Sequence record: FN582354
Origin: Enterobacteria phage phi80
Direction: 5' to 3' (one strand)
Length of the DNA stretch: 23,229 nucleotides
Shown: one piece after another, positions 9,033-13,662 of the stretch
How positions within the stretch are numbered: position 1 is the first letter of the stretch
How the letters are laid out: every line of letters starts with the position of its first letter
Translations under genes and position numbers: made by a program
Notes under the pieces: generated by a model
What the model was told of the DNA's origin: nothing
Databases searched by the model: none
What the model saw: only the letters and a program-made list of their open reading frames with translations

Positions 9033-9776
9033 ATGCCAACACCTAATCCACTCGCTCCTGTAAAAGGTGCCGGTACCACGCTCTGGCTGTACACCGGAAC
9101 GGGTAACGCTTTCGCCAACCCACTCTCTGATATCGACTGGAATCGCCTGGCGAAAATCAAAGAACTCACGCCGGGCGAAATGACCGCAGAATCGTATGAC
9201 GACACCTACCTCGACGACGAGGACGCCGACTGGAACGCGACCGCTCAGGGGGCAAAATTTGCTGGCGACACCTCTTTCACCCTCGCCTGGAAGCCGGGAG
9301 AAGAAGGGCAAAAAGACCTGGTCGCATGGTTTATTGATGGCTCAGTACGCTATTACAAAATCAAATATCCGAATGGTACCGTCGACGTTTTCCGCGGTTG
9401 GTGCAGCAGCCTGGGTAAAGCCATCCCGGCAAAAGAGGTTATTACCCGCACAGCGAAAATCACCAACACCGGCAAGCCGGAGCTGGCTGAAGAAAGCGGG
9501 AGCCCGAATATCCCCGTCACCGGCGTCACGCTCGATAAAGCCACGGCAAGCGTGGCCGTCGGTGCAACCACAACGCTCAATGTGACGGTTAACCCTGCCA
9601 GTGCCTCAGATAAATCCTTCCGCGTATCGTCAGCTGACCGGGCCAAAGCCACAGTTACGGCTAACGGTAACACACTGACGGTCACCGGCGTGGCGGCAGG
9701 CACCGCTGACATTATTGTAATGACCAGCGACGGTAATTTCGTTGCGGTCTGCAAAGTCACCGTAACTGCAGCGTAA
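9033..9776 (+). CDS. V: major tail tube protein V with C-terminal Ig-like (Big_2-type) domain
   Basis: 247 aa. RBS GAGGA upstream. N-terminal region [46 protein letters not shown] matches lambda gpV. The C-terminal about 90 aa ([15 protein letters not shown]...VTVTAA) has the character of the non-essential Ig-like domain. Confidence 0.95.
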
Positions 9777-9786
9777 GGAAGGACGC

Positions 9787-10218
9787 ATGTTTTCGAAAAA
9801 AGAGAAGTTCACCTGGCAAACAGAATCCCTGACCATCTTCGAACTGTCGGCGCTTCAGCGTATTGAGTTCCTGACGTTTATGGCCGCAGAGGAAAGGGCC
9901 GTCAGTGCTGACAGCGAGGGCATCAGCGATCAGGAAATGACGGCCAGGCTGATTGGCTCAAATATTCGCTGCGGTGCGCGTTTGATCGCGATGTCTTTGT
10001 GGCATAACGATCCGGCCGGCACGGATGTGGAAACGTTATATCAGCAGGTGCTGAGCGGCTGGCCGCCGGAGGCGATCGGTAAAGCAGAAATGGAAATAAA
10101 GCTGCTCTCCGGCATGCTCGTTCCGGTTGATGAAGACAACGCTGCCGATCCAGATGGCTCAACGGAGGCCGAAAGCGCAGAAACCGTTACGGCGGAAAAG
10201 CCCTTGCCAGCGAGCTGA
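9787..10218 (+). CDS. G: tail assembly chaperone G (zero-frame product)
   Basis: 143 aa, between V and H. Motif [10 protein letters not shown] matches lambda gpG (AMSLWHN). Ends just past a slippery heptamer. Confidence 0.9.
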   Translation: MFSKKEKFTWQTESLTIFELSALQRIEFLTFMAAEERAVSADSEGISDQEMTARLIGSNIRCGARLIAMSLWHNDPAGTDVETLYQQVLSGWPPEAIGKAEMEIKLLSGMLVPVDEDNAADPDGSTEAESAETVTAEKPLPAS

Positions 10219-10541
10219 AGTTTGTCCTGAATCTGGCGCGCGAGTTCGGGCGACCCGACTGGCGCGCCATGCTGGCTGGAATGACCTCCAGTGAGCTGGG
10301 CGACTGGCACCAGTTCTACCGGGATCATTATTTTCAGGACGCGCAGCTCGATGCGCATTTCTCAGAGCTGCTTTATTCCATCTCCACTCTTTTCTTCCGC
10401 GATCCGGAACTTACCCCCGCACATTTCAGCCTGCTTTCTCCTTCGGATAGCGTCATCAGCGATGATGAGCCGGATGATGACACGCTGATGACCGCCGCCG
10501 AGGGGATCACAGGAGGTATCCGATATGGCCCAGCAGATTAG
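9787..10541 (+). CDS. GT: tail assembly chaperone G-T fusion made by programmed -1 ribosomal frameshift near 10194-10200
   Basis: The -1 frame is open from 10134 (stop TGA at 10131-10133) to the stop at 10539-10541. After the shift it encodes ...[21 protein letters not shown]...GGIRYGP, matching the lambda gpT part of G-T (recalled). G is in frame 1 and T in frame 0, consistent with a -1 shift. Confidence 0.75.
10194..10200 (+). other. candidate -1 frameshift slippery heptamer G GAA AAG (lambda uses G GGA AAG)
   Basis: Only X-XXY-YYZ-like site inside the 85-nt window where both the G frame and the T frame are open (10134-10218). The AAG Lys codon re-pairs to AAA. The P-site GAA to GGA re-pairing needs a G:U pair, so the heptamer is non-canonical. 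Confidence 0.55.
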
Positions 10542-13500
10542 CGATCTGGTTATTAAGCTGGATGTTGACCGCGCCACCTTCAGCGAGCAGGTCGCCCGAA
10601 TCAAAGGGCAACTGACAGGAATGGCGGATGAGTCTGATAAAGTTCAGGCGCGAATGCAGCGTGCAGCGGACCGTCAGAGCGCGGCATTAAAGAGCGTGGG
10701 CGACGCTGGCGCGGCGGCTGCCGCAGATATGAAAGCCCGACAGTCTGCTGCAACGGAAGGGCTGGCCAAAGACTGGCAGAACGTTTCTAAGTCCGTTGAT
10801 GAAACTCACCGCCGCGTGACCGAGCTTAATCAGCGTATGCGGGAAAATGACGGACAGGCCGCAGCGCTTGCCCGCCGTCAGGATGAACTGGCGGCATCCT
10901 TTTTCCGCCAGATTGACGGCGTTCGCCAGCTCAATGGTGAAACGCAGTCGCTTGCGAACGTGCAGGCGCGCTTTCGTGCGGCAAGGGCACAGGGCAATAT
11001 CACCCAGCAGGATTATCTCGCCCTGATTTCCCGCACCACGGCCAGGCAAAAAGAGCTGCAGATCATAGAGGAAAAATCGGCCGCCGCGCGTACCCGATTC
11101 CTCAGTCAGCTGAAGCAACAGGTCGCAGAGCAAAAACTCTCCGGTACCGAGTTGCTGCGCATGAAGGCGGCGCAGGTTGGTGCAAGCGATGCGGCTGAGG
11201 TCTATATCCGCAAGCTCGAGGCTGCCAAAGTGGCCACGCACGGTCTGGGCCTGAAAAGTGCCGCAGCGCGGCAGGAACTGGGGATACTGATCGGCGAGGT
11301 CATGCGCGGTAACTTCGGTGCACTGCGCGGCTCCGGGATCACGCTGGCGAACCGGGCAGGATGGATAGACCAGCTGCTGTCGCTGCGCGGGCTTGGGATC
11401 GCCGGCATGGTTGGTGGTATTGCCGCGGCGGTTTACGGGCTGGGTAAAGCCTGGTATGACGGCAGCAAAGAGTCCGAGGAATTTAACAGGCAGCTGATCC
11501 TGACCGGGAATTACGCCGGGAAAACGTCCGGACAGCTACAGGCACTGGCGCGCTCACTGGCAGGTAATGGCATCACACAGCATGCTGCTGCAGGTGTGCT
11601 GGCGCAGGTTGTCGGAAGTGGTGCGTTTAGCGGTAATGATGTCAGCATGGTGAGCAATGTTGCTGCCAGGCTGCAGCAGGCAACCGGGCAGGCCGTCGAC
11701 GAAACCATCAACCAGTTTAAACGCCTGAAGGATGATCCGGTTAATGCAGTCACAACGCTCAACGATTCGCTGCATTTTCTGACGGCCACGCAGTATGAAC
11801 AGATTGCCTCTGCTCAGGCGATGGGAGATACGCAGAAAGCATCAGAGCTTGCCATGCGCGCATATTCTGATGCGGTCATTCAGCGGGCCGGGGCGGTTGA
11901 GGAAAATCTTGGCTCCCTCGAAAAAGCCTGGAACTGGGTGAAGAATGCGGCCTCAGGCGCGTGGGATGCGATGCTGGGCATAGGGCGTAATCCTGACACC
12001 GCGATGAAGCGCCAGGACTCTTTTGCTGAATGGCAGGCAGCAGAGAAAGAGTACCGTGCTCTGTCCGGCAATCTCAAGGTTGATCCGGACTATGCCGGTA
12101 ACAACGTTCTGCAAAAGGCAGATGCGGAAAGGCTGAGAAACGCGCGCCAGCAGGTAGAGCTTAAGAAGCAGGCTTACGATCTTGCCGATAAGCAATATGC
12201 CCAGGAAGGGCTGGCAGCTGCCAGGGAAAAAATGCGGACGGAACAGCAGACACAGGCAGTCCGGACCCAGCAGCAATTTAATCAGATGGTTGAATCCGGG
12301 GCGACGGCGGCAGAAAAACGTGCCCTTGCGGAGAAAAAACTCAATCAGCTTATCGCTAAAAACCGCCAGGATGCGAAAGACGGCATCGCCACGTTGTGGA
12401 CTGAAAAGGACATAGCGGCAGCACGCGCCGGTATTAAAAAGAAGTGGAAGGATCCCAAAACGCCGAAAGGCAAAAGCTATTCAACGCCAGCCGGGGATAA
12501 AGCTGAAGAAAAAGCGCAGGCTGAACTTCTCACCCTTCAGGCCCAGCTTAAAACGCTCGAGCAGCATACCAGCGTAAACGACGTCATAAGCAAACAGCGT
12601 CAGGATCTCTGGCAGACTGAAAATCAGTTCACCGTTCTGCAGGAGGCCGCTGGGCGTCGTCAGCTTACGGCGCAGGAAAAATCCCTGCTGGCGCACAAGG
12701 AAGAAACGCTCGAGTACAAGCGGCAGCTGGCCGACCTGGGCGATAAGGTTGCCAGGCAGCAAAAGCTCAACCAGCTGACCGACCAGGCCGTGAAGTTTGA
12801 GCAGCAGCAAAAAGCCGCCAGGGCGGGCCTGCAGGCTCAGTCTGAGGGGCTATCCACCCGCGAGGCCGGGCGACAAACCACCCTGCAACGTCTCAGCGAG
12901 AGCTATTCATATAATCCTCAGGCGCAGCAAAAGGTTCTGGAAGAGCAAAGGGCGACGTTCGAGGCTGAAGATGCCCTGCGCGCAAACTGGCTGGCCGGTG
13001 CGAAACAGGGCTGGGCCGAATATCAGGATTCAGCGACAAACGTTTTCAGCTCCGTTCAGCAGATTTCGCAGGCAACGTTCAGCGGGCTGGCTGGCCAGCT
13101 TACCAGCCTGACGACAACCGGGAAGGCGAGCTTCCGGGACTTCACCAGCTCAATCCTCAAAATGATTGTGTCCGTTATCAACCAGCTGCTGGTGGCTTAC
13201 ACCATCCAGAGCGCAATGGGCTGGGTGAGCGGCGGGGCGAAAGCCTCCTCTGCAGGTCAGTCATTCGCGGTCCAGTCATACCGGCCACAGGGTTTTGACG
13301 TGGGCGGTTTTACCGGGCACGGCGGCAAGTACGAGCCAGCCGGTATCGTTCACCGCGGGGAATTCGTCTTCACCAAAGAATCAACCAGCCGCATCGGCGT
13401 GGCTAATCTCTATCGCCTGATGCGCGGGTATGCCTCGGGTGGTCTGGTCGGCGGCGGGAACGCAGCCGGTGCTGGCATGGGCGGGATTAGTGTTTATGCC

Positions 13501-13662
13501 CCAGTCAGCATCAGCCAGCAGGGGAGTGACGGAAGCATAAATCAGGCGAACGCCACGGGGACGGCGAAACAGCTGCAGGCGATTGTTCAGCAGACAATCA
13601 CCGAGCGACTGAAAAAAGAAATGTCCGCGGGCGGCGTGCTTTATTCGAGGAGGACACAGTGA
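10525..13662 (+). CDS. H: tail tape measure protein H
   Basis: 1045 aa. RBS AGGAGG at 10511-10516. Long alanine/glutamine-rich, coiled-coil-like sequence with a glycine-rich C-terminus ([22 protein letters not shown]...), typical of lambdoid tape measure proteins. Position between G-T and M. Confidence 0.95.

Follow-up and report, generated by a model that had tools for sequence, protein, structure and literature searches.

The segment of phage phi80 DNA that lies between the genes for the tail tube and tape measure proteins raises the question of how the T reading frame, which overlaps the end of gene G in the -1 frame, comes to be translated. In phage lambda, the G and T frames are joined by a -1 frameshift at the heptamer G GGA AAG (Levin, Hendrix and Casjens 1993; Xu, Hendrix and Duda 2004, 2013 and 2014, as cited in PMC5009743), and a sequence-only reading of the phi80 DNA had proposed a corresponding event at a "variant" heptamer, GGAAAAG. 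The proposal is examined here in a window of 23,229 nucleotides (record FN582354), by which we mean the whole stretch of phi80 DNA that was analysed and along which all positions given below are counted, unless a record or contig is named. The segment from 9787 to 10541 is 99.7% identical to the phi80 records JX871397 and NC_021190, and its features are listed in Table 1. Based on the comparison of related sequences, we consider it very probable that the phi80 locus carries a G/G-T programmed -1 ribosomal frameshift of the lambda type, with the slip on GGAAAAG.

Table 1. Features of the phi80 G/T locus and its flanks, in window coordinates
Feature	Position	Strand	Basis
Major tail tube protein gene, lambda V-like, C-terminal Big_2	9033-9776	+	PF16461, E 8e-67; PF02368, E 3e-18
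Gene G, tail assembly chaperone, 143 aa	9787-10218	+	ATG 9787, TGA 10216-10218
Overlap of G and the -1 frame, both open, 85 nt	10134-10218	+	TGA 10131-10133 upstream, G stop downstream
Putative slippery heptamer GGAAAAG, G-frame reading G GAA AAG	10194-10200	+	sole A-site re-pairing heptamer of the overlap; conservation
T segment, -1 frame, 113 codons from GCC 10200	10200-10541	+	translation; stop 10539-10541
Predicted RNA hairpin inside T	10234-10269	+	outer helix 10206-10211 with 10271-10276; MFE -41.6 kcal/mol, z -3.2 against shuffles
Tape measure protein gene, lambda H-like, overlaps the end of T	10525-13662	+	PF06791, PF09718; phi80 record annotation

The product of gene G is an exact match to CBH95065.1, "minor tail protein G [phage phi80]", and contains a Pfam match to PF06894, Phage_TAC_2 (E 3.9e-27; 95 bits, with the cut-off at 27), by which the upstream ORF is recognised as a homologue of lambda gpG. 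The -1 frame matches PF06223, Phage_tail_T (Pfam, E 2.5e-13), and the order of tail tube gene, G, T frame and tape measure gene is that of the lambda tail module. The phi80 locus thus shows the features that characterise a lambda-type G/G-T pair, i.e. overlapping G and T ORFs flanked by the genes for the tail tube and the tape measure protein, a gpG homologue upstream and a homologue of lambda T in the -1 frame that has no start codon of its own before the conserved region. The sequence-only reading had placed the end of G at 10218 and the opening of the T frame at 10134, with an overlap of 85 nt and what it took to be a true G-T arrangement; the ORF list and translation return the same coordinates, and the two domain matches and the flanking tail tube and tape measure genes bear out the arrangement. 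A separate feature of the neighborhood is the inverted repeat "IR2" marked in the phi80 record (window 10452-10461 and 10483-10492; record 10429-10438 and 10460-10469), which sits in the 3' end of T, just 5' of the tape measure start codon at 10525.

When the 26 in-frame heptamers of the overlap were enumerated, only the one at 10194 was found to keep the first two bases of its A-site codon after a -1 shift (AAG to AAA), which agrees with the earlier statement that GGAAAAG is the only slippery-like site there; its P-site codon keeps two of three bases (GAA to GGA). The bare motif occurs 5 times in the window where 3.8 copies are expected, which is no significant excess, so its significance lies in its position, frame and conservation rather than its count. 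Measured against the strict X XXY YYZ rule, the A AAG of G GAA AAG fits YYZ, and the XXX portion is departed from through a G.U pair at the second position of the P-site codon; the class X_XX = G_GA is nevertheless recognised as a relaxed P-site class of slippery heptamers (PMC5009743). With two Watson-Crick pairs plus G.U for its P-site tRNA, the phi80 site lies between a hexamer and a true heptamer. The A-site step had been called canonical, and A_AAG is indeed the classic and most shift-prone tetramer in E. coli (PMC4066793; PMC5009743), where the best heptamers have the form X_XX.A_AA.G (PMC4066793).

According to the proposed mechanism, the majority of ribosomes that translate G would terminate at its TGA to yield the 143-aa gpG, and a small fraction would slip by -1 on the heptamer and go on in the T frame, reading GCC CTT GCC AGC GAG CTG AAG and onward. 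The predicted G-T fusion, whose existence we infer from the homology with lambda, would have 251 amino acids, with ...TVTAEK joined to ALASELKF... at the junction. By analogy with the lambda proteins, its G part would bind the tape measure protein and its T part would recruit the tail tube protein. In a tandem slip, tRNA-Lys would move from AAG to AAA with cognate pairing and tRNA-Glu from GAA to GGA, where the pairs at codon positions 1 and 3 would be kept and position 2 would hold G.U. No experimental datum on a phi80 G-T product was found in the literature, and a full-text search returned no phage paper with GGAAAAG, with Xu et al. 2004, Rotman et al. 2012 and Licznar et al. 2003 lying outside its coverage.

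Comparative evidence for the site comes from its relatives. These were collected as 80 viral contigs found via the G protein, 45 species-level genome loci and 80 further viral contigs, the latter two sets found with a T-domain alignment of phi80, N15 and lambda; the annotated records of phi80, LLS, N15 and lambda were added to the survey. The site is present in 208 loci, which represent 126 distinct sequences of 351 nt, and among these the heptamer is GGAAAAG in 114, GGGAAAG in 9, GGGAAAA in 2 and AGAAAAG in 1. At all loci except two, L075 and L127, in both of which the G frame is disrupted, the heptamer is in the frame of G. The prophages that carry GGAAAAG reside in Enterobacter, Citrobacter, Pseudocitrobacter, Yokenella, Pluralibacter, Superficieibacter, Trabulsiella, Kluyvera, Entomohabitans, Kosakonia, Sodalis, Klebsiella spallanzanii and Providencia, and the identity of their T domains ranges down to 42%. 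The distance from the end of the heptamer to the end of the G stop codon is most often 18 nt (97 sequences), with 6 nt (25 sequences) and 3 nt (3 sequences) also occurring.

The stretch in which both frames are open differs in length among these relatives: it reaches 100 nt at its longest, measures 37 nt in 34 sequences and 25 nt in 20, with 22 nt also seen, and is shortest, at 16 nt, in a Providencia heimbachae locus (L129, ATCACTGGAAAAGTAG). The heptamer is the sole element common to the overlaps of the relatives, and because some of these shrink to 16-25 nt around it, no other place is left for a shift. Both the 114 of 126 distinct sequences with GGAAAAG and the narrowing of the overlaps around it therefore speak for the claim that it is the shift site, for which a comparison of the heptamer across related phages had been suggested as a check.

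What did not stand is the notion that the heptamer is a novelty. It does differ by one nucleotide from the lambda site; as a G-T shift site, however, GGAAAAG is already known from two annotated phages, and it is the majority state of the family. In N15 (AF064539), a misc_feature at 10027-10033 of the record, "slippery sequence for -1 translational frameshift", is GGAAAAG, and the record for LLS (PQ299149) carries a joined CDS and the misc_feature "minus-one programmed translational frameshift site GGAAAAG". Genes 14 and 15 of N15 are homologous to G and T of phi80 (T is 73% identical), with the same heptamer and the same 18 nt to the end of G, but the G proteins are only ~36% identical and the overlap is 37 nt in N15 as against 85 nt in phi80. 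LLS is much closer, with 93% DNA identity over G-T and the same annotated heptamer, and differs in the codon before the heptamer, which is GTG (Val) in LLS and GCG (Ala) in phi80. Lambda shares with phi80 the gene family, the position between V and H, the -1 direction, the A-site step from AAG to AAA, the 18 nt from heptamer to G stop and a T that is 56% identical; it differs at the P site, where GGA (Gly) re-pairs with GGG through wobble at position 3, whereas in phi80 GAA (Glu) would re-pair with GGA through G.U at position 2. On a rough tree (neighbor-joining, midpoint-rooted, 75 T-domain residues), the lambda-type GGGAAAG forms one small nested clade and GGGAAAA has arisen twice, so that by parsimony GGAAAAG is probably the ancestral state in the G/T family and the lambda heptamer a derived, minority one. 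The two occurrences of GGGAAAA are at position 1192 of L169 and position 1489 of L128; one is in a phi80-like contig, two substitutions away from GGAAAAG, and the other is in Providencia rustigianii.

The alternative routes to T can be judged against the same comparisons. If T were an independent gene, it would have to start at 10269, the first ATG, GTG or TTG of its frame, and this is how JX871397 annotates it, as a CDS of 90 aa (window 10269-10541; record 10246-10518); RefSeq genomes with a "phage tail assembly protein T" of 90 or 104 aa are likewise compatible with such a gene. The ATG at 10269 is, however, an invariant Met from within the T domain, and the sequence before it (GACTGGCGCGCC) contains nothing that resembles a Shine-Dalgarno site. 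The 23 T-frame codons that lie between the heptamer and 10269 are conserved in phi80, N15 and lambda, the T frame of the relatives opens just 12-60 nt 5' of the heptamer, and the curated records of homologous phages annotate a fusion. With these conserved codons, no earlier start, no Shine-Dalgarno sequence and no promoter found between G and T, we conclude that T is very probably read through from G, and regard its expression as a separate gene as highly improbable. A terminator was not found between G and T either. A change of frame at a different point of the overlap, or through some other process (a +2 shift, for example, or transcriptional slippage), would be compatible with the 85-nt overlap of phi80 taken alone, and nothing specific was found in its favor. 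The overlap holds no second heptamer with A-site re-pairing, and the 16-25 nt overlaps of relatives leave the heptamer as the only candidate. Slippage of RNA polymerase is described on long homopolymer runs, and the run of four A in the heptamer falls far below these. We take such events to be the most improbable of the routes considered.

If the slip takes place on GGAAAAG, it might still involve either both tRNAs or tRNA-Lys alone, two routes that give an identical protein product. The sequence-only reading had offered slippage of a single tRNA as an alternative. On this route, tRNA-Lys would slip on the A_AAG at 10197-10200, either while it occupies the A site or, once in the P site, before the next codon, CCC, is decoded, and tRNA-Glu would not re-pair. 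The rank of A_AAG as the top tetramer for shifting in E. coli (PMC4066793; PMC5009743) is in keeping with this route. The heptamer AGAAAAG, found at position 1195 of L210, a Trabulsiella-like viral contig in which P-site re-pairing is lost, permits only this route, and implies that the first G is not absolutely required unless that contig is defective or contains a sequencing error. In 28 of 45 GGAAAAG contexts, the heptamer is followed in the zero frame by CCC, a codon rarely used in E. coli; a conserved Ala-Leu in the T frame dictates this CCC, which need not, for this reason, be under selection itself. On the other side, the first base of the heptamer closes a codon that varies (GCG, GTG, CTG, CCG, TTG or ATG, for Ala, Val, Leu, Pro, Leu or Met), and although this third position is synonymous and the amino acid drifts, G stands there in 125 of the 126 distinct sequences. 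The P-site codon of the relatives is GAA (Glu) or GGA (Gly) only, a swap that is non-conservative for the protein and conservative for re-pairing, as G is kept at heptamer position 2 and a purine at position 3. Neither restriction would be needed if only tRNA-Lys slipped. Tetramers that lack a stimulator also shift near background in E. coli (0.147% versus 0.112%; PMC4066793), which seems low for a required assembly protein. Slippage of tRNA-Lys alone is thereby weakened to an unlikely alternative, and we lean, with some reserve, towards tandem slippage in which tRNA-Glu re-pairs to GGA.

Tandem slippage on this heptamer must be reconciled with what is known of it in vitro. The re-pairing of GAA to GGA had been described as unusual, and Peng et al. 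2019 indeed call G GAA AAG unfavorable on account of its second-position mismatch; it served them as a less slippery control in reconstituted E. coli translation, where it gave mainly zero-frame product at all EF-G concentrations (PMC6924986). The G/T family, a wide clade of enterobacterial lambdoid phages, presents a natural and strongly conserved -1 site with a second-position G.U in the P site, and comparative genomics and in-vitro kinetics are at odds over it. The discrepancy might reflect a stimulator that has escaped recognition (in the RNA, the nascent peptide or the codon context) and sets the ratio of G to G-T, or a capacity of tRNA-Glu for second-position G.U re-pairing in vivo that far exceeds the in-vitro level, two explanations that we offer tentatively and consider possible but not likely. 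Imperfect re-pairing at the P site also accompanies the movement of tRNA-Lys from AAG to AAA in the G_CGA_AAG of IS1222 and the A_CGA_AAG of Bacillus cdd (PMC5009743), from which phi80 differs in that its P-site tRNA would retain two Watson-Crick pairs plus G.U. The same G_GAN to GGA step as in phi80 is found in G_GA heptamers of insect-specific flaviviruses, dianthoviruses, umbraviruses and mesoniviruses (PMC5009743), but these operate on eukaryotic ribosomes and usually with strong downstream structures.

A stimulator was sought in the RNA around the heptamer by folding the segments 10201-10290 and 10150-10330, and three tests were then applied to the resulting fold across 27 relatives, namely pair counting, RNAalifold and synonymous-site diversity. 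The predicted hairpin (GGCGCGCG...CGCGCGCC, around UCGGG-CGA-CCCGA) is largely kept in lambda and N15. Together with its outer helix, it might act with the heptamer and offset the weak P-site re-pairing, as its stability (Table 1) and the start of the outer helix at the usual 5-nt spacing after the heptamer would allow; 84% of cells are paired in the 27 relatives, versus 32-40% in slid controls. Double-sided changes, however, occur in only 7 cells, with the pairing coming mostly from conserved coding sequence, and the RNAalifold consensus (-6.2 kcal/mol) misses the fold. The synonymous diversity of the hairpin (0.39) is close to the 0.43-0.45 found elsewhere in T, the Providencia, Sodalis and Klebsiella relatives, which retain GGAAAAG, have lost an intact 3' arm, and the hairpin matches no Rfam family, a scan of 10000-10600 having given chance-level matches only. 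Selection beyond coding is thus not convincing, the hairpin is rejected as an established stimulator, and its cooperation with the heptamer appears to us quite improbable. An upstream Shine-Dalgarno-like stimulator was also rejected, the only candidate being a GGAGG at 10164-10168 that lies 25 nt 5' of the heptamer and is not conserved. The locus therefore differs from signals of the dnaX/IS3 type, as there is neither a conserved structure 5-9 nt downstream nor a Shine-Dalgarno-like element 6-17 nt upstream.

Because no dedicated stimulatory element is evident, the efficiency of frameshifting in phi80 is probably low, at or below the few percent of lambda. The ratio of G-T to G in phi80 would be drawn by analogy from its lambda homologues, and a ratio lower than that of lambda, as the sequence-only reading had predicted, is plausible. 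In some relatives, the zero-frame stop codon stands closer to the heptamer than in phi80, where five codons lie between the two. In the Providencia prophages L126, L128 and L129, a zero-frame TAG directly follows the heptamer (GGAAAAG-TAG or GGGAAAA-TAG), and in L093, L094, L096, L099, L100, L122 and L123 the stop comes one codon after it. A stop codon in or beside the A site could in itself be an aid to slippage.

The two tRNAs that would slip in phi80, for Glu and Lys, both belong to the 2-thiolated set, as against the A-site tRNA only in lambda. Loss of the 2-thiolation of the wobble uridine in the tRNAs for Lys, Glu and Gln has been found to raise lambda G-T frameshifting and lower phage yield (Maynard et al. 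2012; PMC3296357). Since both slipping tRNAs are thiolated, phages of the phi80 and N15 type should be at least as sensitive as lambda to loss of tusA or mnmA. If either explanation of the discrepancy between conservation and in-vitro behavior holds, these phages might depend on the Tus/MnmA thiolation of their hosts even more than lambda does.

The value of the site as a discovery is small, as the G-T frameshift is textbook knowledge for long-tailed phages and the exact heptamer is annotated in N15 and LLS. Its practical value lies in annotation, and it has a modest mechanistic value besides. In the phi80 GenBank record, and in the PGAP annotation of RefSeq E. coli genomes, T appears as an ORF of its own, of 90 or 104 aa, and the predicted 251-aa fusion has no exact match among 15 billion collected proteins, an absence that tells us no more than that it has never been annotated. 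The pattern suggests that the programmed frameshift is systematically under-annotated in the G/T family, and the survey indicates that the annotation could be put right by a rule that looks for an in-frame GGAAAAG or GGGAAAG at 3-18 nt from the G stop, on its 5' side. The 143-aa G falls into a 90%-identity cluster whose representative is a 104-aa "tail assembly protein T" and which has many T members of 90 or 104 aa. G and T share no sequence in any one frame and yet they cluster together; G-T fusion members may act as a bridge between them, or the clustering may be an artefact.

Several of the loci collected in the survey call for separate comment. L075, a viral contig, appeared at first sight to be an exception to the in-frame position of the heptamer and was ruled out as such: the acidic linker of G, which lies 5' of the heptamer, has lost 4 nt (~1860-1900), so that the end of G is out of frame, and the heptamer and T are intact. 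The deletion is either an assembly error or the mark of a defective prophage. A contig of 44.5 kb that carries the label of a Geobacteraceae MAG (L090, DAINBV010000046.1) contains a phi80-like G-T with a T that is 96% identical to that of phi80, and is probably a mis-binned enterobacterial phage contig. G-T sequences identical to those of lambda were found on short contigs, several of them with coverage near 1 (L105-L111, L113-L117, L120, L124, L125 and L130), in assemblies labelled Neobacillus, Oceanobacillus, Kitasatospora, Chromatium, Pseudomonas, Shewanella, Leeuwenhoekiella, Tardiphaga, Paenibacillus, Enterococcus, Pseudoxanthomonas, Psychrobacter and Marinilabiliaceae; these contigs almost certainly represent contamination of the assemblies with lambda control DNA.
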